A stretch of DNA of 64,000 nucleotides, from the IMG/VR virus record IMGVR_UViG_3300045988_019421, positions 31,999-95,998 of that record; one strand, 5' to 3'. Position 1 is the first letter of the stretch; each line of letters starts with the position of its first letter. A program made the position numbers and the translations under genes. The notes under the pieces were generated by a model. That model had not been told where the DNA came from, searched no databases, and worked only from the letters and a program-made list of their open reading frames with translations. The stretch comes from a virus. Shown piece by piece: positions 43,799-63,008 of the stretch.

Positions 43799-46700
43799 AT
43801 GCCAAATATATTTGATGATATATCAGTAGAAAAAGCTCCACTAACTAGTGGGGCTAATTCTGTTAATATGGCTAATGATGTTCCTACTGTTACTAAATAT
43901 AAACCTGATGTTGCTGCACAGGGCGACTTTATGTTTCGTAATCTTACAGGTAAAGAAGTGTTTACTGGTACAGAGGAAGATTATCATTCATTAGCTAAGT
44001 ATGGTGCTGAACCTAATAGATATCAAAGTAGAGAAGAATTAGAAACTCTACGTGCTAAGAATCAATCAGCTTGGAAACAGGCAGGTAATGCTTTAGGACA
44101 AACTATTGGTACTGTTATTGGTGATACTGTTGGAGGTATGGGTATGCTAATAGATTTAGCTACTGCCGGATTATGGGATGATAAACCTTTTAGTAATCCT
44201 ATTACAAGAGCTGGTGATACTATATCTGATTATGTTCGTGACGATTTATTTCCTATATATCGTGAGAACCCTGATAAAGCATTTGATATGAATGACTTTT
44301 CAGGTTGGTTTTTTAGTCAAGTTCCTAGTATTGCTAGTTCTCTGTCTTTAATGATTCCTGGCACTCTTCTAACTAAAGGAGTTGGAGCTGTTGGTAAAGG
44401 AGTTGCAGCATTAGGACGTAGTAGTTCTAAAGTAAGTCGTGCAATGAATTGGGCAAAAAAGGCTACTAAATTAGATAATGTATATCGTGCTAATAGATTA
44501 AAGATATTAGCTAATGACGGTATTACAGCTATTGGTATGCGTTTAGGTGAGAATTATCAAGAAGCTCGTGGTGTTGCAGAACAGATAGAAGGTGAAGCAT
44601 TGTCTCTATTTACTGGAATGTCTGACGAAGAGTTTCAGAATTGGTTAGATAATAATCCCGATATTGCAAATGAGACTAAAGGTAGAACTAAAGAAGAAGC
44701 CGCTCTTATAGTTGCAGATAAGGCAGCTATGCGTAACTTTGGTTATAACGCAGGTAACGTATTCTTTGATTTCATGCAGTTACGTGCTGTTAATAAAGCA
44801 ATAGGACAAGTCAATCGTGCTATTACTCCACGTATTCGTTATTCACAGAATCAAGCTCTTGATAGAATAGCTTCTACTGGAATTGAATCTACTAGTCAAA
44901 CACTTGGACAGGCAGCTAAAGGAACTATTAAAGATTTCGCAGGAAAGATAAATAGACTTATTAATTCTAGTGAGAATCTTTTGTTATCTGAATTATCAGA
45001 AGGTATTGAAGAAGCAATAAACTACGTAGGTCAAGAAGAAGGTATTTTATACGGTCGTTATTTATTAGGTCAAGCTGGACAATATAATGGCGCTGTTTCT
45101 ATGGATAGAATAGAGAAGTACTTACAGAATCCTCAATTATATAATGCTGCACTTTGGGGAGTTATTGGCGGTATTACTTTTGGCGGTACTATGTCAGCCA
45201 TTAATAATCGTAAAGGTGGTAATGTAGAAGAGAAACAACGTATTGCTGAAATAAATGGTCGTGAACAGGTATTCAATGAGTATGCTCGTCAAATGCAGAT
45301 TATTGATAATGGTGAAAATCCATATCAAATAGAACGTGATGCTAATGGTAATCCTATTACTTATTTAGATGACGGTACTGTTAGTCAAGACCCAACAGTT
45401 GGTACTACTCGTTATGCTAAGATTAGTCCCGAAGAACAAGAAGATTTACGTGCTGCTGCTAAAGAGAAGTTTACTACTACTCTTACTTTAAATGCTATTC
45501 GTTCAGGTAATTATGAACTACTTGAAGATTATATTGAAGACCCTAGACTAAAGAAGAAACTAGTTGATTCAGGTCTTGTAGATGATGCTGAATACGATAG
45601 AGATACGCAAGAATTAAAGAAAACTATGCGTACTGTTCTTGATAGATACGTTAATTATTCTACTGCATTACGAAGTGCTAATATTGATGATGCTTTACTA
45701 GATGTTGCTATATCAGAGAATATAGTTAATGCACAAGAAGCGGACTTATTAAATAAACGAGTAGAAAGACTTAATACTATTCAATCTCAATTAGAGAATA
45801 GCATACCGGCTATTAATGAAGTTCTTGACCCAATGGCTAAGAATCGTATGCAATTAGGTATATTAGAACAGTATCGTAGAGAAGTAATGTCTACTTATAA
45901 TAGTTTAAAGAATAGTAAAAATCCTTTAGATAGAGCACAAGCTAGTCAATATCTTGATTTATCACGAGTAATCGAATCTAAGGTTACAGACTTACGAAGA
46001 GGTTTAAGTCCTATGGAAAGTTTGTTCCTAGATAATGTTCGTAGTGTAGAGAATATTGCATTAGGAATAGAAGGTAGCGAAGAACAGAATAACTTAATCA
46101 AGAAACAAATAGAAGAACTTGATGAAAATGATGTGGCTCTGTTTAAACAGGCAGGTAAAGACTTTAGTCTCGGTACTCTTGCTAAACAAGTTCGTAATAT
46201 TAATTCAGAGTATATGGATAATATGGGACAGATACTTCTTGATGAAATTCGTAGAGATAATTATCGTTCTCGTATTATTACTACTAATGAACAAGCTAAG
46301 GAATTTGAAGATACTCGTAAGAAAGAATTAGAAGATGCAGCTAAGAATCTAGTTAAGTCAGCAAAGAAGAATCTTAATGACTTTGTTAATATGGCTAATG
46401 AAGAAGAGCTTGGTAATCTTGAGAAAGCACTAGATAATGCGTTTACTGATGAAGAAAGTCAGAATACTAGCAATAAGAGTTTATCTAATGCTGTTAGTAT
46501 TTTAACTAATTCAGAGAATGGTAAGAAAGATATAGCGTCTTTAAGAGAAGCTATTACTAAGAGAAGAAATAGTCTTGCTGCACAAAGTCAGGCACAGCAA
46601 CAGAATGGGAATAATCAGCGACAAGACTCCTCTACGGGGGAAGCGAGGAGCGAAGCGACGAGGCAAGAAGAACCAGAGGTTAAGCCTATTCCAAAACCTA

Positions 46701-49700
46701 AACCAAAGACTGCTAAAGAGAAGAAGTTAAAAGAGACATTAGATAAAGTAGTATCTAAAGCTAATTCAGGTGTTGTAAATAAAGCTAATATTAATAACTT
46801 AGAATTTACAATAGTAAAACCTTTTGCTAGTTTAGGAGATGTTAGTAGAAAACCAGTTAAAGTAAGTGCAATAGATGTACGTGTTAGTAAATTTGGCAAT
46901 GTTAGTATTGATGGAATGGATACCAAAGGTAATATCATTGCTGATGTTACTATTGATGAACTAAATGCCGCTATTGCTATCGGAGATATTACTTATGTAG
47001 ATACTAGTAAATCTGATGAATCTGCTCCTGCCGATACTAACGTTCTTGAATCATCTATATCTGATAATGACTTAGAAGGTCAACGCCAACGTATAGAAGA
47101 AATAAATCTAATTATAGATTTATATAATCAGATACAAGGTAATCAGATAGAAGGTAAGACATTTACTAGTCTTAATGATATGATGGTTTATTTACAACAG
47201 TTGAATCCTAAAGCTGTTAATTTGTATAATGATATTAAGATTCTAGCTAATCGTCAAATAGTAGATGGTAAGATAGTTAATGTTGATGAAGAGATTAAAA
47301 CTCCTTCTGATATTATACAAGAAGCAAGTAAGACTTTAGATAAAGCTATTGCAGAGAATAAACAGAATACTAAAGATAATGGTTACTTCTTTAATTTAGT
47401 TAATTTAAATGATAGTAAGGTTTACTCTCGTATCGGTCAGTTAAAGACTAATAATACAGTAAATGTAGAACTAGATGAAAATGGTAATCTTATTGTTAAG
47501 TCTCGTGGAATTAAGATAGGTGAGTTCCCTAAGATTGGTTATAATAATGGTAATGTTGAAGTTATGAATCAAGGTTGGAGATATACTGTTAAGAACGATA
47601 GTATAGATTTCATAACTCAACTTCAATCTATTATTGCTAGCGAAGAACCTGCTGCTAAAGAATTTGTACAACTACTTAATAATATACGTCGTCTATATCG
47701 TGTTCGTAATAATCCCGAAGTTGAGGGAACATTTGGACATCAGCTTAATGCTTTACAAGAGAATGTTTATTGGAAGAATCTAACTAGTTTGTTTGGTGAT
47801 ACTCAAACTAATCTATTAGATAGGATTAAACATCTTAATAATATTATATTCTTTAATAATGCTCTTAATGTTAATCAGTCTAACTTTAGTACCATTGTTA
47901 ATGAATCGTTGACTAATTGGATGAATAAACTCAAGAAGTCTTATATTGACATTAATAACTTAAAGTCCTCTATTAGTAATACTAAATCTAAAAAGAAACG
48001 TTTAGTTGTTGGTCGTACAAGTTCAGGTAGTGTTATTTATGCTAGAGATAAACAAGGTAATCCTATATATCGTAAGTTCGGAGATGTAGCTACTAGTGAA
48101 GCTACTGACGGTTATCGTCTAATAGTAGGAGTTGATGGAGGAGTTGCTGATATTAAATCTAATAGTATTATTGCCGCTAGTCGTATTCCTAGAGGTGTGG
48201 TTGGTATGACTATTAAAGATTCAGAAGGTAGACTTATCGCTGTTACTAGTCGTGAGAATACTATGAGTAATAGTGAAACAGAAGCTACTGAATACACTAA
48301 GAGGTTTAATGAAGGATTAGATAAGTTATTCCATTCATTAGTAGATGCTACTCTGCAAGGAAATACTGACTTACATCAACAACTATTAGATGAAATATCT
48401 AAGTATGTAGGTAAACAAAAAGCTCTTTATGGTTATGAAGTTGTAGGTCGTGCATTTCGTCCTCTTAATAAGATTGGAGCTACTATTTACTTTAACGTTG
48501 CTGATAGAAATGTAGCATTTGCTATACCTGGTGAAACTAAACCTAGAAGACTTATGGCTCGTATGCCTAATGGTTTTGTTCCTACTAATAATCATGGTAA
48601 CTTTAGCACTATGATGGAAGGAGTATATGCTACACTAACTCGTAATGTTATTAATTCAGCTATTCGTGGTGAATCTAATTTATTTAGAATAGTAGACGGT
48701 AAACTACAAGCTAAGATACCTAATATACTTCAAGATGAATGGATGGACACAGGTTACAGTAGTTATGAAGAGTTCGTAGCTAAAGACGGAGTATTAGTTA
48801 CAGACTTAGGTAATGTTACTGACAGTAAAGGCAATATTATTAGTAACTTTAATTATGTAGGAGATGTATATAATCGTAATATTACTCTTATGAATCCTAG
48901 TCGTAGTGCTGGTCGTACTAACGCGGCTGACGCCGCTGTTTCCCCCATAGAGGAGCAACAAGTTGTATCTCCTGTTGCTACTCCTGACCCACTTGCTAGT
49001 CAAGATAGTGCTCCTCAAGTAGGTACTCTTATGGAAGTTGCGCAAGCTAATACTAGTAATCCTAATCTATTATCTGTTATTTCGGCATTAGAATCTGCTG
49101 GCATTGCTCTTAATCCTGATATTGAAATAGTAGGTGAAAAAGGTAGATTTGCAGGAATAGTTGCTGGTGGTAATACTATTACTCTTACTAATAGATTCGA
49201 TACTCTTGAACCTGAACGTAAAGTACTTACTCTTATACATGAAGGTGTTCACTATCTACTTAATGATGAACGTGCTAATATAGAGCAATCATTTGGTGAC
49301 CTATATGATAAGTTTAGTAGTTTTATTAATCAGGATTCTGCTTTAGTAGAAGAATACGGAAGATTCTTAAATAGTGATAAACCTAGAAGCGTAGCTATTG
49401 AGGAATTTGTAGTTGAAGCTATTACTAATCGTACATTTGCTAGATTACTTGCTAGGATTAAATATGATTCTAAAACTAATACTGAATCTAATAATCTATT
49501 TACTAAGATTGTTGATGCTCTAGTAGAGATTATAGGTAAAGTTGGTAATATAGATAATACATTACTTGGTGAAGTTCGTAATCGTTTATCTACTATTGGA
49601 TTAGAAACATCTGATACAGCTAGCACTACAAGTACTGTTCACGACGATGTATTTGATAGAGCAGAAGAAGATACAGGAGTTCCTACTAATGATGTTTTTG

Positions 49701-49858
49701 ATATTCCTGATATAGACCTAGACTTAGATAGTGCTATAAGTGATAACTATCGACAAGTCGATAACTTCGATAGTTTAGTGAAAGGTTTGAATAACCGTCA
49801 GAAGGCTATTGTGAGCCATTTGTTTGACACTGGTGAGCTTAGTTTTGTATGTAGCTAA
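43799..49858 (+). CDS. 2019-aa giant virion protein with a C-terminal HExxH (zincin-like) motif
   Basis: In-frame CAT GAA GGT GTT CAC (HEGVH) at 49238-49252 within VLTLIHEGVHYLLNDE. Long coiled-coil middle region and N-terminal hydrophobic segments. Confidence 0.6.
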   Translation: MPNIFDDISVEKAPLTSGANSVNMANDVPTVTKYKPDVAAQGDFMFRNLTGKEVFTGTEEDYHSLAKYGAEPNRYQSREELETLRAKNQSAWKQAGNALGQTIGTVIGDTVGGMGMLIDLATAGLWDDKPFSNPITRAGDTISDYVRDDLFPIYRENPDKAFDMNDFSGWFFSQVPSIASSLSLMIPGTLLTKGVGAVGKGVAALGRSSSKVSRAMNWAKKATKLDNVYRANRLKILANDGITAIGMRLGENYQEARGVAEQIEGEALSLFTGMSDEEFQNWLDNNPDIANETKGRTKEEAALIVADKAAMRNFGYNAGNVFFDFMQLRAVNKAIGQVNRAITPRIRYSQNQALDRIASTGIESTSQTLGQAAKGTIKDFAGKINRLINSSENLLLSELSEGIEEAINYVGQEEGILYGRYLLGQAGQYNGAVSMDRIEKYLQNPQLYNAALWGVIGGITFGGTMSAINNRKGGNVEEKQRIAEINGREQVFNEYARQMQIIDNGENPYQIERDANGNPITYLDDGTVSQDPTVGTTRYAKISPEEQEDLRAAAKEKFTTTLTLNAIRSGNYELLEDYIEDPRLKKKLVDSGLVDDAEYDRDTQELKKTMRTVLDRYVNYSTALRSANIDDALLDVAISENIVNAQEADLLNKRVERLNTIQSQLENSIPAINEVLDPMAKNRMQLGILEQYRREVMSTYNSLKNSKNPLDRAQASQYLDLSRVIESKVTDLRRGLSPMESLFLDNVRSVENIALGIEGSEEQNNLIKKQIEELDENDVALFKQAGKDFSLGTLAKQVRNINSEYMDNMGQILLDEIRRDNYRSRIITTNEQAKEFEDTRKKELEDAAKNLVKSAKKNLNDFVNMANEEELGNLEKALDNAFTDEESQNTSNKSLSNAVSILTNSENGKKDIASLREAITKRRNSLAAQSQAQQQNGNNQRQDSSTGEARSEATRQEEPEVKPIPKPKPKTAKEKKLKETLDKVVSKANSGVVNKANINNLEFTIVKPFASLGDVSRKPVKVSAIDVRVSKFGNVSIDGMDTKGNIIADVTIDELNAAIAIGDITYVDTSKSDESAPADTNVLESSISDNDLEGQRQRIEEINLIIDLYNQIQGNQIEGKTFTSLNDMMVYLQQLNPKAVNLYNDIKILANRQIVDGKIVNVDEEIKTPSDIIQEASKTLDKAIAENKQNTKDNGYFFNLVNLNDSKVYSRIGQLKTNNTVNVELDENGNLIVKSRGIKIGEFPKIGYNNGNVEVMNQGWRYTVKNDSIDFITQLQSIIASEEPAAKEFVQLLNNIRRLYRVRNNPEVEGTFGHQLNALQENVYWKNLTSLFGDTQTNLLDRIKHLNNIIFFNNALNVNQSNFSTIVNESLTNWMNKLKKSYIDINNLKSSISNTKSKKKRLVVGRTSSGSVIYARDKQGNPIYRKFGDVATSEATDGYRLIVGVDGGVADIKSNSIIAASRIPRGVVGMTIKDSEGRLIAVTSRENTMSNSETEATEYTKRFNEGLDKLFHSLVDATLQGNTDLHQQLLDEISKYVGKQKALYGYEVVGRAFRPLNKIGATIYFNVADRNVAFAIPGETKPRRLMARMPNGFVPTNNHGNFSTMMEGVYATLTRNVINSAIRGESNLFRIVDGKLQAKIPNILQDEWMDTGYSSYEEFVAKDGVLVTDLGNVTDSKGNIISNFNYVGDVYNRNITLMNPSRSAGRTNAADAAVSPIEEQQVVSPVATPDPLASQDSAPQVGTLMEVAQANTSNPNLLSVISALESAGIALNPDIEIVGEKGRFAGIVAGGNTITLTNRFDTLEPERKVLTLIHEGVHYLLNDERANIEQSFGDLYDKFSSFINQDSALVEEYGRFLNSDKPRSVAIEEFVVEAITNRTFARLLARIKYDSKTNTESNNLFTKIVDALVEIIGKVGNIDNTLLGEVRNRLSTIGLETSDTASTTSTVHDDVFDRAEEDTGVPTNDVFDIPDIDLDLDSAISDNYRQVDNFDSLVKGLNNRQKAIVSHLFDTGELSFVCS

Positions 49859-49940: not shown

Positions 49941-50027
49941 TCCCTATCTTACTATCGAGACGCTATATAAAATGCGAATTTCGGCAGAATTTTGCGGTCT
50001 ACGGGCGTCCGTCAGCCTTCGGAACGT

Positions 50028-53000
50028 ATGGTTTCGGACTATTCGATAAATATATTTGATAGTGTTGATAATAATGCTATCTTTGATACTGTTAGTAATT
50101 ACTTAATTAATAATATAAAGTATATGAGTTGTACTCCTAGTAATCCTAAATTAGATAAGCTATTAGAGCTTACTAATAATGATGTTAGAAAGTCTACCGA
50201 ATATCTTGCTACTATCGAAGATACTAGTTTTCGTGAGTGGTATCAAGAAAAGACCGGTAGAGATTTCAATGAAGAGAGTATTGATGCAAACACTGTTAAT
50301 GCTGTTATAGCATATAATAACAGAGAGACGATTAATACTCAAGATTATGTTCAGAATGTTCGTACTTCACGAACCGGTGTATTTGGTAATGATATAGCAA
50401 AGGAAGACCATGCTATTAATATTCTTAGTACTATTTATCTAAAGAGCCAAGGAAGTATTCGTAAAGCTCTTGCTAATAGAAAACGTAAAGGTGAGAAAGA
50501 AGTTCTAAAGGATAAAGCCGGTAACGAGTTAAGTCCTCAAGCTGCTGTAAAGTTAACTATGATTACTTATCTTAATCGACATCTTAAAGAAAATGATAAG
50601 AAACTTACGCAAGAACAAAAGGCTTATATCGGTACTATTATTCGTAATCTTTATGATGGTGGTAATTATAACCGTAATGAGTTATTTGATATTGTTATTA
50701 ATTCACCCGAAGTTATTAGTCTTAGCAAAGAGTTTGGTATAGATACTAACGAGGATTATGAAACTAATGACGATGCTAAAGAAGGAAGTGAACAAGATAG
50801 TCGCCAAGAAGACCCTGAAACTATTGCCTCTTTACGTGCTGATTGGTCTGAATTAGCCGACCAACGTAAAGACATTGATAAGAATGTTAGTAAAGAAGTA
50901 AAAGAATGGTTTGCTCGTTTGCCTAAAACTAATAGTAATTCTTTTATTAATGAAAAACCTGATACAGCTAGTGATACTTATTCAGGTATAGCTGAAAGTG
51001 TTGGATTCTCTAGTTCTTTTAAAGCATTGAATAATTATGGTAACTTCTCTAGTGTTGAAGCTATGGTAGAAAGTTTCCATACTATTGCTGAAAGATTTAA
51101 AGAAGTATCTCATTTAGAATATGCTGCTCGTCTACTAGAAGATGAAGCTAATGTTCAGATAAGAAATAAGATATTTACTCAACTAAAACAATCTATTTGG
51201 GAACGTAATGAAGTAATTCAAAGTGCAGATGGTTCTAATGTAGTGACTAAAAATCGTAATACTTTCCCTAAACTTAATCTGCAAAATAAGATACTTAATA
51301 GTTTTGATTCTCTTGTTCATAATCCTTCTATTATGAATGGAGATGTTGCAGTATTAGAAGAACTTAAAAATAGATTATCCACATTAAACAATTCAGATAC
51401 AAATGAAATACAAGAAATCTCGGAAGAGCTTGCGGCAATCTTTAATAAATATAACTTCGGCATCAATAGGCAGGGTGTTATTAACTACATTCGTAGCTTC
51501 GGTGATAGTCAACTTTCTAATATCACTAGTCTTGTCAACGATTTGCTAGAATTTAATAAAGTTGTAGCTAATGCGTCTAATATATTAAAGATAGATAATG
51601 AAGCACAACGTATATATTATGCAGGTGAATATAGTAAAGCTAAGAACGATGAAGAATATACAGTAGTTCCATTTGATAAATCTCAACTACAATATAAAGG
51701 TGGTTATGCTAATAATATAGCTAATCGTATATCTGATAGATTTAAAGACTATCAAATAGTAGATTCTGAATTTAATAGTATTAATGCAGAGAACAATCTA
51801 GTTAGTGATATTCTAAAGAATAACTATATTAGTAAATTCTTTGAAAGAATTAACGATAATCGTTATAATGATAATCCTACTTCTAACGTTGAACTTCGTG
51901 ACTATCTAGTAAAGTTTACTAATATTCCTCAATATCAATATAGTAATATACTTATTGAGAAAACTCTATCTAATGGTAAAGTAATTCCCGGTCTACTCCG
52001 TCTCACCGACACTGGTTACGAACTTACTGAATATTATCGTGAGTTTGGTGCACAGTTGTATAATGGTGTTAGTAATGAAGTTACAGGAAAGGCTAAATCT
52101 TATAAAGATATTAATGCTCTTGAATGGGATATTATTACTCTGAATGAATACGCTAATAATGGAGATAACTACGAAATGGCTAAAGGAGTTAAGAAATCTA
52201 AGTTCTTTACCCAAACTCCTTCTGACGCTCCAAAGACTTTCGTATTCAATAGCTACAAGTTAGATATTAATGATTTATTTATTAGACAAACAACAGGTAG
52301 TGAAATAATATTTGAACAATCTTCGTCTGAAAACTACAATGAAAGAACCAATATTAATGCAAACGCAGATGTAACAATAGCGTTTGCTATGGACTTTACG
52401 ACTGCTGGCGAAAAGGTTACAAAGAAGTATGTAGAAAACAATAATAAATTGTATATCCCGATTGATATGAAAAATCTGAAAGGGGTAACAATAGAAGAGA
52501 TAGCAGATAAGATTATAGATAATATAAATAAAAAATATAGTAGTTTATTTCAAAGAGATATAAGTATAAATATTGCAGGTAATGGTATATATACTTTTGA
52601 AAGATATAATATAAACCAAAATAGGATAGATTCATTTATTTATAATGTTCTAAGAAATGTTATAAATAGTCCTAAATTAAATGTTAAAGTAAATCTAATA
52701 AGAAGTGGAGGACAAACAGGTGCAGATGAATCAGGTGCTAAAGCAGGTAAACAGTTAGGAATAAAAACTATTGTATTAGCTCCAAAAGGCTATCGTTTTA
52801 GAAGAAGCGATAATAGAGATATATTTTCAGAAAGTGAATTTAAATCAAGATTTGGAAAATTTAATTCAAGTTCTGTTACATCTATAAATCATAATCATCC
52901 TATATATATTGCTTATGCTAACATCTATGCTAAAGAACTAGCAGAAATGGCACAAGCTATTAACTTCTTATTCGAAACTACTGTTGAGAATGGAGTAGTA

Positions 53001-56000
53001 ACTATTGTGTCTGACGAAAATGGTAAACCTAAGATAAAAGAAGAGTTTAAAGATTTACGTAAATCAGAAGCTAGACTTAATTATCATTATCGTAAAAGTA
53101 TTCTCGATAGTAATGGCAATCCTACTGGTAATGTATTTAAATTTAGAAGTTTACTTATTGATAAAGTCAATAAGATTGACAACTATAAATATAGTAGTAG
53201 TGAGATAGCCAAAAGAGTAGATATGAACTGGTTATTCGAGGAAGGAAGCGTATTCTCGCTTCTTTACGGGGGAAAGAATAGTGAAATATCGCTAATACAA
53301 GATGAGAACGGAGAATATAATATTAGACTTACTGGAGGACTTCGTAATTCTGTATATAACTATATAGATAACTACATTAATTATAGAATACAAGAAGCTA
53401 TTACTAAATACAGTTCTGATAAAGAGTTTGTAGATAAGTATAAAAATGCTAGTCAAGAATCATTCAATGCTTTCATTTCTGAAATGGTTCTTAATTATGA
53501 GATTCAATATAATAATCTAAATGATATATTCTTCGGAGATGAAGCATATTATAAAGATTCTCGTGATACTATTAAACGTAATAAAGAATACCAAGCCGGA
53601 GGATTAGCTTATGCAGGATATGATTTGTATAATGTACAGAAGCATTTGGGAGATATAACAGTAGCTCCTAATAAAACTATTAGTGTAGATAGTAGTTTCA
53701 AATATATTACTCTTGAAGATGTTCAAAGTAGTGGTAAAGTTCTTGATGATTTAAAGAAGCAATTAGATATAGCTAATGTATCTAAAGAAACTAGAGCTTT
53801 TATACTTAAACAGTTCTCTAAAGATAAGTCAGAAGTAACAGATGCTCAATCATTTATTACTCTTGATGAATTTGTTCGTAGAATGTATCTACGTGGAGAA
53901 TATGATAGTTATAAAGATTTAATCGAAGCTCTTTATGACGAAACTAAGCCTATTGATAATGTTAAATTAGGAGAATTATCTAAGAAGATACAAGTTCAGA
54001 AGAACTTCTATTATGACTTAGAAATAGACAATGATGCTAAGTTAGCTAATCCTATTCAGATTAAAAATGCAGAATTTGTACTAATACCTAGATTCTTAGG
54101 TAATAGTGAACTTGGTGCTTTAGCTAAATATATGACTGATAATAATATTGGTCAGGTTAACTTTACTACTACTGAAAAAGCTACTACTAATAGAGTACTA
54201 GAGTTTTGGGATTCTCATGGGAAATTCCCCTCTAAAGAGAAGTTGAAACGGTTTAACTTGGATATCCAAACTAAGTATAAAACTGGTTGGTATTCTAATC
54301 TTTATACCCAACAAGACATTCCTCAACACATGGATGGTGAGAATAAGGCTGGATTGCAGATTGTTAAGAAGCTAATAGATAATATTGGTAATACTCCCGA
54401 AGGTCAATCTCTTATTAAAGATTTCTTTGATAACTTTACTGCTAATATTCAAGATAGTTTTAAAGATGCTGCTTCTCGTATTGGTGTAGAGATTGATGCT
54501 AAAGGTAATGTAGTATACGAAGGTAATCAAGTTAAGATTGATAATAATAAGTTCATATCTCTTATTAAAGACGAGTTAACTCGTAGAGGATTAGATAGTA
54601 ATTATCGTAAGTATGCTGAAATAAATCCTGAAACTGGATTGCCTTATATGCCTACTTGGACTAATCTAGTTCGTAGCAAGATAGAAAATATTGTAAATAG
54701 TATATTTACTAATCGTGTTACTCGACAAGTACTTCCAGGATTTCATGCTAGTCAAGTTTCAGATATTGGTATGACTGAACTATCAGGTCGTAGTGATTTA
54801 AGAGATTTGATGCAATCAAGAGTAGAAGAGAAGCATGGTTATTCTCTTGGTCGTAAACTAACATATCATAAAGACGGTAGTCAGATAGTAGAAATACTGT
54901 TACCTAAATGGATGGTAAAGGCTTATAATACTTATGATTCAGAAGGTAATCTAGTTAATGAAGTTACTCTTGAAGATTTACAATCTGCTGGACTTGATAC
55001 TATGATTGGTTATCGTATTCCAACAGAAGGTAAACAATCAGTAGCAGTAATGAAAGTTGTAGGTTTATTAGATGAATCTCAAGGTTCTACTATTGTTGTT
55101 CCTGATGAATGGGTATTACAAACTGGTGCTGACTTTGATATTGACAGTATCTATGGTATTTATCATACTGCTACATTCGATAAGAATGGTAAACCACAGA
55201 AAGTTGAATATATAGAAGGAGAAGATGATGCAGCAGTAAATAGAAGATATAATAACTATCTGTTTAATAATCTAAGTAAAGAGAATATTCAAGATGCTAG
55301 AGATATTGCAATAGATTTAAGTCAAGAAGGACTAAGCTATGCAGAAGCTTATGAATCAGCTATTACTAAATATGCTGAACAAGGAGGACTTTATTCTAAA
55401 GAAGAATTTAGTAAGCTAACAGTAGCTCAACAGAATACTCGTGATGCTCGTAACAATAAGATAGTAGATACATTTATTAAGATAATGAATCTACCAGTAT
55501 CTATTGGTGAAAACTTATCTTCTAGTAACTTTGAAGATATTAAAGCTGCAAAAGCTAATATCTTTGAAGGTTTATCAGAGACTTATCGTAATATTAATTC
55601 AGTAATTGCTCAAAATTGGTATCGTGATGCTAATATGTCCGGTGCGCGTCTTAAAGCTATTTCTGTTAATCGTGACAACTTCGCCTCTATTAGTAACAAA
55701 GCTAAAACTATTGTTGACGGTGCACACGGTGGTTTTAGGTTTACTTATACATATAGCACAGAGAAAGAAGCAAAAGACGCACAAAGTAAACTAAGAAAAC
55801 GTTTTAGAGATGTAACTAGAAAAGGTAAAGAAGTAACAGTAGACCATAATCAGTTGGGTTGGAGTTACGATAATCTTAATATAGATAATCGTTTGATTAC
55901 TCCTTATTCTTCTGAAACTACTGCTCTTATTCTTGATGGTGTAAAAGAAGGTGGTGTTCCTAATGTAGATTTGTATACTTTTGATGTATATAAATCTATT

Positions 56001-59000
56001 GTAGATTGTGGTGCTAATTATGAAACATCTATTCTATTTATTAATCAACCAGTAATAACTGAACTTATTGCTAGACAAAATGCTAACGATAATGTATTCG
56101 GAGAGACTGGATTTAATCCTCTTATTGGATTAAGACGAGACATGTATGTAAGATTAGCTAAAGCTGTTGGTATTCCTACTAATAGTATTACTAAAAAGAC
56201 TCGTCTTAAAGATGTTAAGAAAATGCTTGAGAGTAGAGGAATAGAGATTAACGAAGATGAACTTCTTGAAGAAGGAATAAAAGTAACTGAACTAAGAGAA
56301 CATCTTAAAGATGATGTAGAGAATGTTAGTTCTACTAATACAGATAATCTCATATATCAAATTAAAGCGTTAAGAGCATTTGAATATTTTAAAGAGATAG
56401 GCGACCAAATCAATTCCAATATGATGGTTATCACTAGTGATAAGTTTGGTGCTGGTAAATCTGCTAATGAAATAGATAATGTTATTAATCGTATTAATGA
56501 TATTAAGGAGAATAATGTTGGTCGTATAAAAAAAGGTCAACCTGTTCTTAAAGCAGTTACAGAAGAAGGTAACAAGTATCTAATAGATGCTATTTATCCT
56601 AAGACTAATTTCAATACTATTAATGATATTAATAAGGATGAACTAGAATCTGCATATCCTTCTTTATATTATCAGTTAAAGTATAGTTGTATAGCTACTG
56701 AAAAGATTATTCGTGATAGTGAGATATTCAAAACTCAAACACCGCAATTCCGTGAATTAGTTAGTAAGTTTGGTATTCGTAATCTTCAAACTATTCAGCA
56801 GTTAGAGAGTTTCATTATTAATATGAGCCAAGCACAGTCTAACTTTGTTAATACTAATAGATTCATAACTAAAAGTGATAATGAGTTTATACCTAGCTAT
56901 AATATAAATCTTATTAGTAGCCAACAAGATACTCGTGCTAGATTATATGGATATACTGATATAGTAGGTAGTTTCGATATGTCTGATATGTCTGAAAAGA
57001 ACGTAGAAGCATTTATGAAATTATCTCCTGCCAATAAAGTAGCATTGATTCAAAGATATACTTCTGATAATAATCTATTTAAGAATTTAAATGTTGAGTA
57101 TAAAGGTCGTCGTAATAGTTATAATAGAATAACTATTGTTGATAGTACTATATCTACTGAATCTCAATATCAAATGTTCCGTAATGCTTGGCATAATAAT
57201 AATCCATTTATTAAACTTGCTACTATGGATTTGATAAGATATTCTATGGTAGTAGAAGGTTATAAATTTAAAGGTGGTACAGTTAGTAAAATTATTCCTG
57301 TTGAATTATTATATGGACAAGATACTGGTATTGATTCTGATAATGGAGTTTCTTCAGCTACTAATATTATTAATGATTCAGATAGAGCTATTAATAGCAT
57401 GATTCAATATGGTAGTGAGACAGGAACTTATGAAAGAGCTAGCAATGATGCGGCAACTATTGAAAAGTTACGTGACTTATTCTTTAGAACTAATCCTAAT
57501 AATCCTGATGTATTAGTATTTGAGAATAAGAAGTATAAAGAATCCAATAAGATAACATTTAATAGATTAGATGTTGGAAGACTTAGCTTTAAAGAAGCTC
57601 AAGAACGCGGAATGATTACTGGTAGTGAGAATAATCGTAGGTATCGTTATTATGCTAAGACTAATGATAACAATAAAACTCTGCGATTATATAAACTAGT
57701 ATATTATAACGATACTGTTTATATGTTACCTACTAATCCATTAGAACAGAATGAAATTGGAGAAGTAAGTGTTAATCCTGATAATAATAGAATGTTTCTT
57801 CCATTAGATATATTAGAAGATGTTTCTATTAATCAATATGATGCTGCTTTTATTAGTTCTGTAAATATCGGTATTACTTCTGATACTCGTAAGTTTATGG
57901 TTCTTCCTACTGTATTTGAAAGAGGAGCTGATACATTAATCGAAGAAGTATTTCCTAATAGTATTGTCTTGACTTCCCCCATAAAGGAGCAGCAAATTGA
58001 TACTTCTCGTAAGTACATTGTGGCTATTACCGATAATAATACTCTATTAGAAACTATTGAATCTCTTGATGCAGCTGGTGTTCATGATTATGTAGTTGCT
58101 GCTCCTAATATGAATTATAATAATATTCGTAGGATTATTAATGAACGTAATAATGCAGATATTGCAGCTAAGAGATTACAAGCAGCTATGACTAAGCTAG
58201 ATGCTAATGAAGTTCAACTTAGAAAGAAGAAATCAGATAATTCTGAATCTCCTTATTATGCTCAACTTAAAGCTAGCATTAATCAAACTATTAATGATGT
58301 AAATGTTAATGGTATTGGATTTGTTCCTGTTTTACAAACAGTGATAGACAATACTGGTTTTAGACCCAATGGATATTTCAGATATGAAAAAGAAGGTAAT
58401 GTTTATATCGTTACTAACTTAGGACGTATAACTACTAAATCGGTTAGTCTTACTCCTGATTATTCATATAGTAGAAAAACTATTATTAATAGTGTGTCTC
58501 AACTAGAATTTCCTAGACGCAATGCTTTAACTCAAGTAGTTAAAGAAAATGCTAGATTAGATAAATTCGCTAACAATAATATTATTAGAGTTCAGACAGA
58601 AGAGAACTTTATTAATGAAGATGTACTTGAATCAGCATTAGTAGATAATGATAGAGAAATTAACGAATATATTTCTCGTGTAATTGAAAGTGTTGAGAGA
58701 AGTAATGCTAATGTTGAAGAAGCAGCTCTTAATGATGCTTTCCGTTCATTCGCCTCTATTGACTTACGTTCTAATACAGCTACTAAGTTAAATGATAACT
58801 TACGTGAGCAAGCACTGAAAATCATTAACGGTTATACTAATAGACGTATTGATGATTTCTTATTTGATATTCATAATTTCTATACTACTTATGTTACTAA
58901 TCCTGATGGTACTTATAAACTAGACGAAAATGGTAATAAGATAGTAATGGAGAAATGGGGTATAACTAATAAGAAGTTATTCGACCGTATGTTAGAAGAT

Positions 59001-62000
59001 GAAACATTACGTACTCGTTATGAAATGTTCCTAGATGACATTAATAGATTTGTAGAAGATTATTCTATTATTGAAGCTATTCAACCTTACGATATTGATG
59101 AAGCTCATAGTGTAAGTGAGACAGAAGAAGAAATAGAAGGTTTACGTAGAACTAATGATATGCTTAAACAAATCAAAGATAAGTTCAAACGTATTAAAGA
59201 CTTAGATAATGTAGTTAAGCGTAGTACTAAGATGTACTTCGATAGTTATATTACTAGTCTTTCTAGTGACCCTCGTGTTCAATCTAATATGCTTAGTATT
59301 ACAGAAGCATTTGAAGATGAGAACTTCTTCCAGTTTTGGTTAGCTGATAGTCAAGAGACACATATTCCAATAGTTCAGATAGTTCTAAAACAAATGATGA
59401 ACCAATTAAGAGCTAGTGAGATTAATGCTCGTGATAGAAAGATAACCTTTACTTCCGCTATTTCAGCGATTATCGAGGACGCAAAAAGCAACGGTGTAAA
59501 CGTGTCTCTGAACGATATTTTGGACGAAAATGGCAATCTTTTGCTGCTGTATAATGAATCGTTCACTGATAAATTAAGGTCGTTAAAAGAGGCTGTAAAG
59601 CTGGCTCAAATCGACGACCCGAATGGTCGGGACGGTCTTATATATAAGAAAGCTAAGGATGAACTAGAGAAGTTCTTAATAGATAATGTAGAAAGAGAGA
59701 ATGTAAAAGAGTTTTATCAAGACTACTATGATATGAATCAAATACTTAATAAATATCCTCAAACTTATGTTAAGTTAATGAAGATATTACATGAGGAAGG
59801 AGATATATTAAGTACAATGATTGATAATGATTATAGTACTCTTACTGTTCAGAATGCAAGAAGGCTTGAAGAGCTTAGAAATGAGTTAGCAGAAATGCGA
59901 GCTACTATTGATATGGATGGTAATTATAAAGAGAATTATCAAGAAGCTAATGCTGTTAATAATTACTTGTCACGTAGACGTCAGTTAAATAATAAGTATA
60001 AAGAGAGTAAACCTAAAGATGCTTTTACTATTCGTTATAAACAAGCTATTGAAGGTTTACAATATCCTGAAACTTCTGAAACTTATAGAGAATCAGTAGA
60101 ATGGTTAAAAGCTAATACTGATTATAAGTTAAAAGGAGAGTTCTTAGAAGAACTAAAGAAGGCTTATATGGATACTCGTTTAGGTAATCCTTTCGATAGT
60201 TTCGTTCGTACTATGGCTTATGGTAAGTATGATTCAGAAGGTGTTATTGATGGTACTAAGTTTACCGATGTTCAAATAGCTAATCTAAAGAAACATCAGG
60301 AGCAAATGTTTGCCGCTGCTGTTGGTCGCGTTAAGCCAAATGAACAGAAAGCTCAAGAATGGTTAGATAATCATGTTAGTTATATCAATACTGTTTACTA
60401 TGAAGCTATGTATGTAGCTATGAACAAAATGGGTAAAGTAGTATTTGATAAATGGTATAACGAGAATCATGTACTTAATCCTATTACTAAAGAATACGAA
60501 CCATTAGCTATTTGGAAACAAATGGTAGTTAAGGACGAAGCTAATAATATGGAATATAGTCCTAAATATAAATGGTTAGAAACTAAAGTTAAAGACCAAT
60601 ATAAGAATCCTAACTATGATGAAGTTAAGCTACAACCTTCTACTAATAAATATCGTAACGATAAGTATTATGGAATGAATAATTATCAGCAACAATTATA
60701 TAATGAAGTAGATTCTCTTCTTAACGAACTTGTTAAAGATAAACGTAGTCGCGCTTATATTAATCGTGGTTATTTACCTAATCAAGCTATTGAACAGCCA
60801 AGTCAAGGTTTTGCTGACTATTGGCAAGACTTTAAACGTAGTCATGGTTGGTATGATACTCCTAATAAATCTGATATAGAACTTAATCTATATAAGAGGT
60901 TTAGTAATGCTCCTATGCTTCATAGTTTATCGGAAGTTAAGTTACTTCCTATTCGTGAACAACAAGAAGGAGAAACTAAAGAAGAATATCTAACTTATGT
61001 TCGTGAAACTCAAGCTAAGAATAATGAATTACGTAAACAAAGAGCACAGGAAAATGCAGAACGTAATAATCCAAATGTTCTTGAAAGACTTAATTCATTT
61101 ATAGATAGTATGTATAACTTTAATACTCGTAATGATATAGCTAGATTAGCTAAGATTACTAGTAATCAATTACGTAATATGGATATTATTAAGAGAAATC
61201 CTAATGATAAACTTATGGATAATAGATTACTTAGTAGAATTACTGGTAAACAAGAAATACGTACTACTAAGAGTGATGATTCGAATATAGTTAAACACTT
61301 CGAGAATCAAGTTCGTAAGTTAGTATTTAATGAATTTGAAATGGATGAAGGTACTCGTTCTAAAGTATCTCGTGTTATGCGTAATATGGTATCTAGTAAG
61401 TTTATGATGTTAAACATTACTGGTGGTATTGCTAACGTTCTATACGGTAAGACACAGATACAAATGGAAATGGCTGCCGGACAATTCTTTAAATACAAAG
61501 ACTTCCGTAAAGGTGAGAACGAATGGATGCAGAATATAGGTAGTTATTTAGCAGATGCTTATAATGAAACTACTAATAATGAAACTAATGCCGTTATTAG
61601 ATTATTTAATGTTATTGAATCTGATATGGTAACAGAACGTTATGGTAAAGGTAGTAATCCAATGGGTAAATTAGAGAACCTATTGTTTATCCAACAGACA
61701 GCAGGTGAACATTATATGCAGAACGCTACATTGTTAGCTATGCTTCATTCTCATAGAGTTGTTGCTGTTAATGGTAAGAATAAAGTAATGTCATTTGAAC
61801 AGTTTGCTATGAGACTTAGAGAAGAAGCATTACTTAAAGTTCTTCGTAAGAATAATCCTGAATTAGTTACTAAATATGAAACATTCAGAGATAAAGTGCT
61901 TGAATCATATATTGAGAAAGAACGTTATGTTAAGTTTAAAGCTGATATAATAACTGACTTCTTACGCTCTGTTCCTAAAGAGATAAGAGAAGAGTTTAAA

Positions 62001-63008
62001 GCTACCTATAAAGAAGATACTAAAGAAGAAAGAACTAAGTTCGAGAATCATCCTTCTTTTAGAGAAAGTCTTATCTTGAAGAATGGTGTTGCTACTCTTA
62101 AACCTGACAGTGGTCTTACTAATGATGATATTGCAGCTTTCCGTAATAAGGTTATATCAGTTAATCATCAAATACATGGTATCTATGATAAGATTGGTGC
62201 TAATCAATTACAACAATCTTGGTGGGGAGCTTTACTAATGCAGTTCCATAAACACTTAGTTCCTGGATTCCAAAAACGTTTTGGTTATCGTTTAGGTCAT
62301 TTTGACGGTATATATAACGAAACTAGAGAATCTATTAGTAAAGGAACTTATGTTAGTTTAGGTGAGTTTATAGCAATGCCATTTAAGAAATACTACGAAC
62401 TTAATGATAGTAACGAACTTCAAGCTGTTCGTACTCTTCAAGGTATTGCTAAAGGTTATGCAGATTTTGTAGCTAATCTTACTACTTATTATAATATTCT
62501 TCCTGAATATGATAAAGCTAATATTCGTAGATGTTTAGGTGAATGGATAGGTATTGTTAAAACAGTTGCATTATTTGTAGCAGGTAAGTTGATGCTTGAT
62601 GATGATGACGATTCTACACAAGTAGCAGATTATATTCTATATAGTGCTGACCGTCTAATGTCTGAAACTATTCAGTATACTCCATGGGGTATGATTAATG
62701 AAGGACAGAAACTATATAGTCAACCTGTTGCAGCATTTAGTATTGCACAGGACACTCTTAGATTATTAGGAGCTTGTTGTAGTTATATAATTACTGGTAA
62801 CTCTGATGATTTATATTATAGTTCAGGTAGTTACTCTGGTGAAAATAAACTTGCAGTAAACTTCTTTAAACAAGTACCATTAGTTAATCAAATTAGAAAA
62901 CATGAAAGACTTGGTGCTAATAATAGTTACTATAAAGTTCGTAGTAGTCCGTTTAGTGGTTTAGGTCAAGTTATTGCTAATATGATTACTGGTGAAGATG
63001 AAGAATAA
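50028..63008 (+). CDS. Giant virion-packaged RNA polymerase-like protein (crAss-type, DxDxD), with an embedded YpsA/SLOG-like domain
   Basis: About 4326 aa from ATG 50028 (the ORF track uses TTG 49992; an alternative ATG is at 50124). In-frame GAC TTT GAT ATT GAC (DFDID) at 55131-55145 within VVPDEWVLQTGADFDIDSIYG. SGGQTGADESGAKAG at 52704 onward. Confidence 0.7.
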   Translation: MVSDYSINIFDSVDNNAIFDTVSNYLINNIKYMSCTPSNPKLDKLLELTNNDVRKSTEYLATIEDTSFREWYQEKTGRDFNEESIDANTVNAVIAYNNRETINTQDYVQNVRTSRTGVFGNDIAKEDHAINILSTIYLKSQGSIRKALANRKRKGEKEVLKDKAGNELSPQAAVKLTMITYLNRHLKENDKKLTQEQKAYIGTIIRNLYDGGNYNRNELFDIVINSPEVISLSKEFGIDTNEDYETNDDAKEGSEQDSRQEDPETIASLRADWSELADQRKDIDKNVSKEVKEWFARLPKTNSNSFINEKPDTASDTYSGIAESVGFSSSFKALNNYGNFSSVEAMVESFHTIAERFKEVSHLEYAARLLEDEANVQIRNKIFTQLKQSIWERNEVIQSADGSNVVTKNRNTFPKLNLQNKILNSFDSLVHNPSIMNGDVAVLEELKNRLSTLNNSDTNEIQEISEELAAIFNKYNFGINRQGVINYIRSFGDSQLSNITSLVNDLLEFNKVVANASNILKIDNEAQRIYYAGEYSKAKNDEEYTVVPFDKSQLQYKGGYANNIANRISDRFKDYQIVDSEFNSINAENNLVSDILKNNYISKFFERINDNRYNDNPTSNVELRDYLVKFTNIPQYQYSNILIEKTLSNGKVIPGLLRLTDTGYELTEYYREFGAQLYNGVSNEVTGKAKSYKDINALEWDIITLNEYANNGDNYEMAKGVKKSKFFTQTPSDAPKTFVFNSYKLDINDLFIRQTTGSEIIFEQSSSENYNERTNINANADVTIAFAMDFTTAGEKVTKKYVENNNKLYIPIDMKNLKGVTIEEIADKIIDNINKKYSSLFQRDISINIAGNGIYTFERYNINQNRIDSFIYNVLRNVINSPKLNVKVNLIRSGGQTGADESGAKAGKQLGIKTIVLAPKGYRFRRSDNRDIFSESEFKSRFGKFNSSSVTSINHNHPIYIAYANIYAKELAEMAQAINFLFETTVENGVVTIVSDENGKPKIKEEFKDLRKSEARLNYHYRKSILDSNGNPTGNVFKFRSLLIDKVNKIDNYKYSSSEIAKRVDMNWLFEEGSVFSLLYGGKNSEISLIQDENGEYNIRLTGGLRNSVYNYIDNYINYRIQEAITKYSSDKEFVDKYKNASQESFNAFISEMVLNYEIQYNNLNDIFFGDEAYYKDSRDTIKRNKEYQAGGLAYAGYDLYNVQKHLGDITVAPNKTISVDSSFKYITLEDVQSSGKVLDDLKKQLDIANVSKETRAFILKQFSKDKSEVTDAQSFITLDEFVRRMYLRGEYDSYKDLIEALYDETKPIDNVKLGELSKKIQVQKNFYYDLEIDNDAKLANPIQIKNAEFVLIPRFLGNSELGALAKYMTDNNIGQVNFTTTEKATTNRVLEFWDSHGKFPSKEKLKRFNLDIQTKYKTGWYSNLYTQQDIPQHMDGENKAGLQIVKKLIDNIGNTPEGQSLIKDFFDNFTANIQDSFKDAASRIGVEIDAKGNVVYEGNQVKIDNNKFISLIKDELTRRGLDSNYRKYAEINPETGLPYMPTWTNLVRSKIENIVNSIFTNRVTRQVLPGFHASQVSDIGMTELSGRSDLRDLMQSRVEEKHGYSLGRKLTYHKDGSQIVEILLPKWMVKAYNTYDSEGNLVNEVTLEDLQSAGLDTMIGYRIPTEGKQSVAVMKVVGLLDESQGSTIVVPDEWVLQTGADFDIDSIYGIYHTATFDKNGKPQKVEYIEGEDDAAVNRRYNNYLFNNLSKENIQDARDIAIDLSQEGLSYAEAYESAITKYAEQGGLYSKEEFSKLTVAQQNTRDARNNKIVDTFIKIMNLPVSIGENLSSSNFEDIKAAKANIFEGLSETYRNINSVIAQNWYRDANMSGARLKAISVNRDNFASISNKAKTIVDGAHGGFRFTYTYSTEKEAKDAQSKLRKRFRDVTRKGKEVTVDHNQLGWSYDNLNIDNRLITPYSSETTALILDGVKEGGVPNVDLYTFDVYKSIVDCGANYETSILFINQPVITELIARQNANDNVFGETGFNPLIGLRRDMYVRLAKAVGIPTNSITKKTRLKDVKKMLESRGIEINEDELLEEGIKVTELREHLKDDVENVSSTNTDNLIYQIKALRAFEYFKEIGDQINSNMMVITSDKFGAGKSANEIDNVINRINDIKENNVGRIKKGQPVLKAVTEEGNKYLIDAIYPKTNFNTINDINKDELESAYPSLYYQLKYSCIATEKIIRDSEIFKTQTPQFRELVSKFGIRNLQTIQQLESFIINMSQAQSNFVNTNRFITKSDNEFIPSYNINLISSQQDTRARLYGYTDIVGSFDMSDMSEKNVEAFMKLSPANKVALIQRYTSDNNLFKNLNVEYKGRRNSYNRITIVDSTISTESQYQMFRNAWHNNNPFIKLATMDLIRYSMVVEGYKFKGGTVSKIIPVELLYGQDTGIDSDNGVSSATNIINDSDRAINSMIQYGSETGTYERASNDAATIEKLRDLFFRTNPNNPDVLVFENKKYKESNKITFNRLDVGRLSFKEAQERGMITGSENNRRYRYYAKTNDNNKTLRLYKLVYYNDTVYMLPTNPLEQNEIGEVSVNPDNNRMFLPLDILEDVSINQYDAAFISSVNIGITSDTRKFMVLPTVFERGADTLIEEVFPNSIVLTSPIKEQQIDTSRKYIVAITDNNTLLETIESLDAAGVHDYVVAAPNMNYNNIRRIINERNNADIAAKRLQAAMTKLDANEVQLRKKKSDNSESPYYAQLKASINQTINDVNVNGIGFVPVLQTVIDNTGFRPNGYFRYEKEGNVYIVTNLGRITTKSVSLTPDYSYSRKTIINSVSQLEFPRRNALTQVVKENARLDKFANNNIIRVQTEENFINEDVLESALVDNDREINEYISRVIESVERSNANVEEAALNDAFRSFASIDLRSNTATKLNDNLREQALKIINGYTNRRIDDFLFDIHNFYTTYVTNPDGTYKLDENGNKIVMEKWGITNKKLFDRMLEDETLRTRYEMFLDDINRFVEDYSIIEAIQPYDIDEAHSVSETEEEIEGLRRTNDMLKQIKDKFKRIKDLDNVVKRSTKMYFDSYITSLSSDPRVQSNMLSITEAFEDENFFQFWLADSQETHIPIVQIVLKQMMNQLRASEINARDRKITFTSAISAIIEDAKSNGVNVSLNDILDENGNLLLLYNESFTDKLRSLKEAVKLAQIDDPNGRDGLIYKKAKDELEKFLIDNVERENVKEFYQDYYDMNQILNKYPQTYVKLMKILHEEGDILSTMIDNDYSTLTVQNARRLEELRNELAEMRATIDMDGNYKENYQEANAVNNYLSRRRQLNNKYKESKPKDAFTIRYKQAIEGLQYPETSETYRESVEWLKANTDYKLKGEFLEELKKAYMDTRLGNPFDSFVRTMAYGKYDSEGVIDGTKFTDVQIANLKKHQEQMFAAAVGRVKPNEQKAQEWLDNHVSYINTVYYEAMYVAMNKMGKVVFDKWYNENHVLNPITKEYEPLAIWKQMVVKDEANNMEYSPKYKWLETKVKDQYKNPNYDEVKLQPSTNKYRNDKYYGMNNYQQQLYNEVDSLLNELVKDKRSRAYINRGYLPNQAIEQPSQGFADYWQDFKRSHGWYDTPNKSDIELNLYKRFSNAPMLHSLSEVKLLPIREQQEGETKEEYLTYVRETQAKNNELRKQRAQENAERNNPNVLERLNSFIDSMYNFNTRNDIARLAKITSNQLRNMDIIKRNPNDKLMDNRLLSRITGKQEIRTTKSDDSNIVKHFENQVRKLVFNEFEMDEGTRSKVSRVMRNMVSSKFMMLNITGGIANVLYGKTQIQMEMAAGQFFKYKDFRKGENEWMQNIGSYLADAYNETTNNETNAVIRLFNVIESDMVTERYGKGSNPMGKLENLLFIQQTAGEHYMQNATLLAMLHSHRVVAVNGKNKVMSFEQFAMRLREEALLKVLRKNNPELVTKYETFRDKVLESYIEKERYVKFKADIITDFLRSVPKEIREEFKATYKEDTKEERTKFENHPSFRESLILKNGVATLKPDSGLTNDDIAAFRNKVISVNHQIHGIYDKIGANQLQQSWWGALLMQFHKHLVPGFQKRFGYRLGHFDGIYNETRESISKGTYVSLGEFIAMPFKKYYELNDSNELQAVRTLQGIAKGYADFVANLTTYYNILPEYDKANIRRCLGEWIGIVKTVALFVAGKLMLDDDDDSTQVADYILYSADRLMSETIQYTPWGMINEGQKLYSQPVAAFSIAQDTLRLLGACCSYIITGNSDDLYYSSGSYSGENKLAVNFFKQVPLVNQIRKHERLGANNSYYKVRSSPFSGLGQVIANMITGEDEE

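Follow-up and report, generated by a model that had tools for sequence, protein, structure and literature searches.

Phage-encoded SLOG proteins of the cpYpsA type are already known, and databases tag such proteins with the Pfam family PF12694, formerly named 'putative molybdenum carrier', for which the crystal structure 3IMK is available. The viral YpsA-like SLOGs described by Iyer, Burroughs, Anantharaman and Aravind in 2022 are typically standalone, co-occur or are fused with Macro, NADAR, Nudix and DUF4326, and are predicted to act with such partners, early after infection, on ADP-ribose derivatives made by host immunity, sensing or degrading for example molecules resembling cyclic ADP-ribose (cADPR) (PMC9503650). 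Here, we describe a SLOG domain encoded in a 64,000-nucleotide stretch of the IMG/VR virus record IMGVR_UViG_3300045988_019421 (positions 31,999 to 95,998 of that record), which we call the window and to which all coordinates refer. Like its described counterparts it is phage-encoded, and Macro, NADAR, Nudix and DUF4326 recur here as partners; unlike them, it is an in-frame cassette inside the virion RNA polymerase (RNAP) of a crAss-like phage, where it occupies a polymorphic slot.

Accessory or anti-defence proteins packaged in virions, and variable fusions to head proteins, are exemplified by P1 DarA/B, T4 IPI* and the polymorphic toxins fused to MuF. In these systems a host-manipulating activity is pre-loaded in the capsid and acts before phage gene expression, as would be the case here, but here the virion RNAP serves as the chassis, and its payload, an in-frame cassette within the protein, is exchanged by recombination among near-identical genomes. 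Macro, NADAR and Nudix genes have also been reported among virion morphogenesis genes by Iyer et al., in whose text neither 'crAss' nor 'virion RNA polymerase' occurs (PMC9503650). NADAR removes ADP-ribose from guanine, and gp30.3/AdfN of T4, a NADAR protein, defeats DarTG1 (PMC11825919). The parallel to these ADP-ribose erasers is that a gp30.3-like NADAR directly adjoins SLOG in giant crAss-type RNAPs and that an alternative payload at the same slot is probably macro-like, as are DarG and TARG1; however, AdfN is expressed as a protein of its own and its activity has been demonstrated, whereas the SLOG is part of a virion protein and its activity is predicted. As for the crAss polymerases themselves, gp47, gp49 and gp50 of crAss001 are virion cargo according to mass spectrometry, and a model has been proposed in which the RNAP-associated proteins leave the capsid before or together with the DNA and then refold in the host cytoplasm (PMC10172136). 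The phi14:2 protein gp66 is treated in reviews, including PMC7886860.

Fold and block order of the SLOG domain

The core of the domain (52302..52853, plus strand) comprises amino acids (aa) 771-954 of the open reading frame (ORF) 49992..63008 and is colinear with full-length standalone phage proteins of about 180 aa such as P0001. One block (52338..52487, plus strand; RT..N...ADVTIAFA..TAGEK.T...YIPID) is equivalent to the middle part of cpYpsA, profile positions ~55-104. The 'ISINIAGNG' strand (52560..52586, plus strand) is found mid-domain, although its counterpart in cpYpsA/3IMK, 'LNIAG', is the C-terminal strand, and the equivalent of the cpYpsA N terminus (profile 1-33) follows only at 52698..52796 (plus strand) with a strand, the Gly-rich loop SGGQTGAD, a helix and the PKG strand. 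A first-pass annotation, made from the letters alone, had placed the segment in the YpsA/cpYpsA clade, with SGGQTGAD at 52704-52727, and had read its blocks in the order opposite to cpYpsA, as a permuted or two-part arrangement. The motif (aa 905-912) and both peptides quoted there are indeed found in ORF 49992..63008, and the profile and structure searches it had proposed both returned the SLOG fold (PF12694, 3IMK).

The match to PF12694 has an E-value of 4.8e-7 and, summed over two stretches, 30.1 bits, which exceeds the gathering score of 26.2; relatives of the module score 35-60 bits. It is split and in swapped order: aa ~784-832 correspond to profile positions 55-104 and aa 903-935 to positions 1-33. 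When the domain sequence was re-ordered in silico, a single continuous match to profile positions 1-104 was obtained. PHROG 10774, a family of unknown function, was matched with E=1.4e-29, and both family matches are far above chance. The profile of 92 relatives aligned to the sequence of 3IMK with E=2.4e-12, again in two swapped stretches, the first of which stops exactly at the LNIAG strand.

The structural data agree with this. An AlphaFold2 (AF2) model of the domain, built on the alignment of relatives, has a pLDDT of 95.2 and a pTM of 0.91 and displays a regular alternation of strands and helices. In a Foldseek search against the PDB, 3IMK was the only specific match (probability 1.0, root-mean-square deviation 2.8 Å over 117 columns); Foldseek aligns sequentially, so that only part of 3IMK was recovered, as expected for a permuted order. 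Numerous matches to SRP-GTPases and dehydrogenases, with deviations above 10 Å, were dismissed as generic Rossmann noise. Model and 3IMK match together reveal the fold of the SLOG superfamily (Rossmannoid, TIR-DrHyd-SLOG class), a three-layer alpha/beta fold with a central parallel sheet. The Gly-rich, nucleotide-contacting loop is present as IRSGGQTGAD (aa 903-912), with G138, Q140 and D144 invariant in the 92 family members, and the GxD/E signature of the YpsA clade is G910-A-D912, an equivalence taken from the motif alignment. In B. subtilis YpsA this signature corresponds to G53/E55 and is predicted to bind substrate (PMC6459960). N860, A862, G863 and N864 are likewise invariant across the family, and all 19 of the 19 family-invariant residues, G910 and D912 included, are intact in the insert. 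Profile searches gave no match of the window domain to YpsA proper (PF06908), LOG (PF03641) or DprA (PF02481) at E<=1-10; the sole trace was a DNA_processg_A match (E=0.058) in the relative P0065. NCBIfam contained nothing for the SLOG segment.

The swapped block order was seen in all relatives tested, standalone proteins included, and is thus a property of the family and not a peculiarity of the giant protein. For the same reason, a tandem duplication with loss of the ends inside the giant protein was rejected as the source of the swapped order. Altogether, it is practically certain that the domain is a SLOG of the YpsA clade, closest to cpYpsA and a further circular permutation of it. The first-pass reading of the order thus holds for the split Pfam match as well as for the 3IMK alignment, and can be refined: the arrangement is a circular permutation common to hundreds of standalone phage proteins of about 180 aa. 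With cpYpsA the window domain shares the SGGQTGxD loop with its GxD/E, the RT..N, ..GG..T and LNIAG blocks and the Rossmannoid fold. It does not have the colinear cpYpsA order, in which the SGGQTG block comes first and the LNIAG strand last: the stretch of ~45 residues with which cpYpsA begins (strand, SGGQTG loop, helix and PKG strand) is C-terminal here, and there is an extra conserved C-terminal hairpin plus helix that ends in an invariant R-F. Because only the re-ordered sequence matches the profile continuously, the domain is a sister permuted form of cpYpsA and not a typical PF12694 member.

The inserted cassette and its slot

The window is 95.5% identical at the nucleotide level to Bacteroides phage crAss002 (Jahgtovirus, Intestiviridae), in which gp33 is annotated as 'putative RNAP catalytic subunit'. 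The homolog of gp33 in the window is the giant protein that carries the SLOG domain (49992..63008, plus strand), which has 4338 aa when counted from the mechanical TTG start of the ORF list. About 750 aa downstream of the insert it contains DFDID (55131..55145, plus strand; TGADFDIDS, aa 1714-1718), the DxDxD catalytic motif of crAss-type RNAP, and the segment around this motif is the part best conserved across crAss genera. The significance of the DxDxD motif in the crAss RNAP protein was described by Yutin et al. (PMC7886860). Since TGADFDIDS is present and the nucleotide identity with the crAss002 gp33 region is so high, the host protein of the insert can be taken to be the DxDxD-bearing RNAP protein of that study.

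When aligned with crAss002 and cr107_1, by blastn as well as at the protein level, the inserted cassette spans 52281..52880 (plus strand; aa 764-963; 600 nucleotides). Both phages align on either flank and have only four codons (NANG) opposite it. In the cassette, a complete SLOG module is preceded by a linker of 6-7 aa (IRQTTG[S]) and followed by one of 9 aa (GKFNSSSVT), and module plus linkers account for the whole insert. The span given by the first-pass annotation, 52338-52900, was right in location but not in its limits, the true insert being slightly wider.

The composition of the insert is foreign to its surroundings. Its GC content of 0.275, compared with 0.311 for the rest of the ORF, is the lowest among 374 comparable windows; ATA makes up 67% of its Ile codons versus 31% (p=6e-4) and AGA 83% of its Arg codons versus 40% (p=5e-3). 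The codon-usage distance of 0.147 versus 0.088 +/- 0.014, a difference of ~4 standard deviations, was reached by no other window. These counts confirm the earlier impression of an AT-rich stretch that is rich in ATA and AGA, and the alignments bear out the separately acquired insertion that had been suspected from it, with the refinement that it is not a one-off event but one occupant of a polymorphic slot. A deletion in crAss002 instead of an insertion here is disfavoured by the foreign codon usage, by unrelated inserts at the same codon and by the make-up of the cassette as a whole gene plus linkers. No intein blocks and no HNH or LAGLIDADG domain of Pfam were found within 52200-53000. The insert is a whole small phage gene, coding for a SLOG protein of ~185 aa, that was placed in frame in a surface linker of the RNAP protein of a crAss002-like (Jahgtovirus) phage.

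In 46 related contigs, the slot is empty in 33, contains SLOG in six, a module of ~151 aa in five and a module of ~122 aa in two, all at the same codon. Presence of the segment in orthologous crAss-like RNAP genes, for which a check had been suggested, is therefore variable, and the segment is clearly not a universal, integral part of the RNAP fold. The six IMG/VR contigs with the same SLOG insert have 90-96% aa identity. The alternative payloads, at the position equivalent to 52281/52880, are found in the related loci L021-L026 and L041.

The ~151-aa module, too, corresponds to an entire small gene of phages, with matches to PHROG 2072 and to the NCBIfam family NF049995 'A1S_2505 family phage non-structural protein' (56 bits, cut-off 45). 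It has 212 standalone relatives, the best with 74% identity. A confident model of its closest relative (pLDDT 93) matched macro domains almost exclusively, among them those of CHIKV and VEEV nsP3, TARG1, DarG and MacroD2, with probabilities of 0.95-1.0, TM scores of 0.5-0.67 and E-values of ~1e-3, which makes it likely that this A1S_2505 module is macro-like. That SLOG and the macro-like payload are divergent versions of one domain was rejected with a profile-profile probability of 0.4%. The ~122-aa module has few relatives, one of which was named ASCH by its source.

Trees built from the 2.4-kb flanks intermingle the four allele types, and the tree of the upstream flank is incongruent with that of the downstream flank, from which it follows that the cassettes moved between backgrounds by recombination. 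The trees also rule out the insert as a marker of a single clade. The linker of the RNAP is a polymorphic, recombining payload slot.

Such a slot could in principle harbour selfish or neutral passengers, that is, domain-sized insertions that are tolerated in a permissive linker and bring no benefit or merely act as a spacer or structural element in packaging or ejection. This would agree with the acceptance of unrelated inserts, with the empty slot in 33/46 relatives and with the persistence of foreign codon usage. However, between two sub-lineages the insert has a non-synonymous divergence (dN) of ~0.035-0.04 and a synonymous divergence (dS) of ~0.5, the same dS as the flanks; the resulting ratio omega of 0.07-0.08 (42 synonymous versus 15-18 non-synonymous changes) indicates strong purifying selection. 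In addition, all 19 family-invariant residues are kept, Pfam detects neither an intein nor a homing-endonuclease domain in the insert or close to it, and widely diverged RNAPs have captured this module time and again. A passenger is thus very improbable, and a neutral one is rejected by the omega of ~0.07. We conclude with high confidence that the insert is an acquired and selected cassette in a polymorphic slot.

Company of the module and possible function

What could the cassette be selected for? On balance, we slightly favour the assumption that it is a virion-delivered counter-defence payload that acts on NAD/ADP-ribose-type molecules, with a ligand, a chemistry and a role that we infer. 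The first-pass annotation had likewise suggested counter-defence through an action on host signalling nucleotides. The crAss RNAP proteins, packed in the capsid and believed to be ejected with the DNA, would bring the payload into the cytoplasm of the host ahead of all phage gene expression. The pocket of the SLOG domain, with its Gly-rich loop SGGQTGxD and the invariant residues R, T, N, E and Q, would then bind a molecule derived from NAD+ or ADP-ribose and would probably cleave its N-glycosidic bond. The target may be an immune signal that diffuses, of the cADPR type, or, alternatively, ADP-ribose on a base, either of the DNA as it enters or of early RNA; with such a base-linked target, the tether to the polymerase would put the eraser on the template. 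The base-linked option is attractive because of the tether and because the module is found in the company of AlkB, NADAR, macro and ASCH domains.

A broad search retrieved 361 SLOG relatives, mostly standalone proteins of 173-190 aa, with up to 53% identity and 92% coverage of the insert; the N terminus of P0001, MIVFQEDTS, aligns with EIIFEQSSS of the insert. The genes next to the standalone relatives encode RNA ligase, PNK-like AAA_33, 2H/Acb1-like, DUF4326, Nudix and helicase proteins, a neighbourhood of early genes and of genes for RNA repair and nucleotides. In P0017 and P0006 (345 aa) a domain of ~160 aa (..NIYSNASTPLARALSNPTHY..VEEAYFKLR..) is located between the SLOG halves, and the same domain follows SLOG in the giant protein P0317; it has no Pfam match and looks faintly NADAR-like by eye.

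Some fusions and neighbours suit a different function. The module could be an enzyme of the nucleotide pool, a LOG-like N-glycosidase or nucleotide binder acting on ordinary or modified (deoxy)nucleoside monophosphates in salvage or in the supply of DNA precursors, so that early delivery primes replication. C-terminal fusions to NT5C 5'-deoxynucleotidase in P0093, P0108, P0115 and P0116, as well as thymidylate synthase and nucleoside deoxyribosyltransferase as neighbours of some relatives, point to plain nucleotide metabolism, and LOG-clade SLOGs are nucleotide N-glycosidases (PMC9503650). On the other hand, there is no Pfam match to LOG or deoxyribosyltransferase families, and a metabolic enzyme would gain little from stoichiometric delivery in a few copies per virion. 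Moreover, presence or absence and cassette swapping in near-identical phages are the signature of conflict genes and not of core metabolism, and the partners within the giants are NADAR, macro-like and ASCH-like modules. We therefore regard a role in the nucleotide pool as rather improbable.

These partners became visible in an exhaustive search of 1.84 billion representatives with the SLOG profile, which gave 4738 clusters at E<=1e-3 and of which the 150 best matches were examined. Among these, 132 were newly retrieved; 64 of the 132 are longer than 2000 aa, most of these being crAss-type RNAPs, and 35 of the 64 carry G.DFD.D. The position of SLOG falls within the final tenth of the protein for 37 of these 64 and is scattered in the remainder. 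Of the SLOG-bearing proteins longer than 1000 aa, 47/73 align to gp33 around the catalytic core with 22-27% identity. SLOG and the macro-like module stand side by side in six giants; in others SLOG is next to a NADAR domain for which there is also a match to T4 gp30.3 (PF08719, 48.6 bits vs 35.1), and two giants have, by eye, ASCH-like modules that flank SLOG. In one protein of shorter length, an AlkB-like, a NADAR and a SLOG domain follow one another. In cr10_1 (Suoliviridae), SLOG is located on the tail at the C terminus of the DFDID protein.

Kehishuvirus (Steigviridae) has a parallel slot, located after residue ~60 of the homologs of crAss001 gp50. It is empty in crAss001 and many others, contains SLOG in PhiCrAssBcn1/2/3/20/25, a module that is A1S_2505-like by eye (VIFVFGSNPEGRHGAGAA...) in cr112_1, and an unrelated helical insert (~115 aa) in PhiCrAssBcn4-12. 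In gp13 of PhiCrAssBcn1 (L003 5793-7292) the linker motif ALDKALSPxFEAP is partly repeated on either side of the insert; the other loci with this slot are L055, L056 and L057.

A single Cys a few residues from the C terminus was noticed in the giants P0255, P0272, P0308, P0309, P0250, P0286 and P0317 and in the short proteins P0016 and P0020. The Cys tails of SLOG proteins read ..PFCLK, ..PPCK, ..NKNC, ..LKLC, ..ILECL, ..FLKCN, ..IKNCV, ..TKCRED and ..KTCKGK; the protein of the window is without such a tail.

Being covalently part of a polymerase, the domain might also be a sensor and not an enzyme: it could bind a nucleotide signal, a host alarm or a metabolite, and tune the virion RNAP allosterically, for example by making early transcription faster or delaying it once immunity has been triggered. 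The same has been proposed for SLOG fusions to helicase, HNH and exonuclease by Iyer et al. (PMC9503650), and ThsA-type SLOGs sense 3'cADPR. A specific allosteric coupling is, however, hard to reconcile with a module that occurs N-terminally, internally or C-terminally in giants and that functions standalone in hundreds of phages. It is also absent from most close relatives, interchangeable with macro-like modules and found in tandem with NADAR, i.e. with erasers. A sensor is accordingly unlikely, and the same macro-like, NADAR and ASCH-like partners strengthen the reading as a counter-defence payload.

Several points nevertheless weigh against counter-defence. We know of no cpYpsA-like protein with a known biochemical activity, and no PADLOC defence-system model matches the domain. 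The crAss literature searched contained no evidence for virion packaging of gp33 in crAss002-like phages, and the domain would have to refold after passage through a channel narrower than 50 Å. Most close relatives do without SLOG, and the fusions and neighbours that speak for nucleotide metabolism have been mentioned above. The macro assignment of the alternative payload is of moderate strength, as are the fold scores on which it is based, and the ASCH assignment of the ~122-aa module depends on a single source annotation. Finally, processing of ADP-ribose derivatives by SLOGs is experimentally uncharacterized, as stated by Iyer et al. (PMC9503650).

It is tempting to speculate, and we do so tentatively, that crassvirus virion RNAPs in general might be modular delivery chassis, in which defined linkers serve as slots where whole genes of the SLOG, macro-like, NADAR, ASCH-like and AlkB-like types are exchanged in frame by recombination. 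Tethered to the first polymerases that work on the entering genome, there would be erasers of ADP-ribose or of different base modifications, or else enzymes that degrade alarms of the ADP-ribose type, and the repertoire of payloads would track the local defence repertoire of Bacteroides.

Other features of the giant protein

The annotation of crAss002 starts at the ATG of MVSDYS, 12 codons downstream of the TTG (49992-50027). The real giant protein therefore probably has 4326 aa, and the residue numbers used here may run 12 too high. The whole giant protein had no match among PDB sequences, which means that phi14:2 gp66 is too divergent, and its other 1000-aa slices gave no credible Pfam or PHROG match. 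A second segment of variable length lies at 55229-55400 (aa ~1745-1800), directly after DFDID, where crAss002 and cr107_1 are longer by ~119 residues; it was rejected as a payload and looks like a charged, helical linker of variable length. In the hmmsearch with the SLOG family profile there was a second short sub-match at ~61275-61450 (aa ~3768-3826), which is probably spurious. The ORF upstream of the giant protein (43799-49858, 2019 aa) is named 'putative RNAP catalytic subunit' in crAss002 and 'peptidase' in cr107_1. Should it be a protease, one would have to consider that it processes the giant protein and thereby perhaps releases the payload.

Implications

No viruses of the human gut are known to be more abundant than the crAss-like phages; to our knowledge, little has been reported on how they handle the immunity of Bacteroides. 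The literature on crAss genomics and structure, the reviews and the survey of NAD-ADP-ribose systems that we consulted do not mention SLOG, macro-like or NADAR modules inside crAss RNAPs, nor a polymorphic in-frame slot in the crAss RNAP. A third, further permutation of SLOG is likewise not mentioned in this literature, which leaves out the SLOG classification of Burroughs et al. 2015. For annotation, a word of caution follows: regions of crAss RNAP genes that look 'hypervariable' can be discrete cassettes. If the function proposed here is true, crAss-like phages would have a counter-defence strategy that is built into the injected polymerase, and the cpYpsA-like SLOGs, with thousands of clusters that are without known activity, would gain a concrete and testable setting. 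Natural near-isogenic variants with an empty, SLOG, macro-like or ASCH-like slot would be available for this purpose, and a close relative, crAss002, is in culture.

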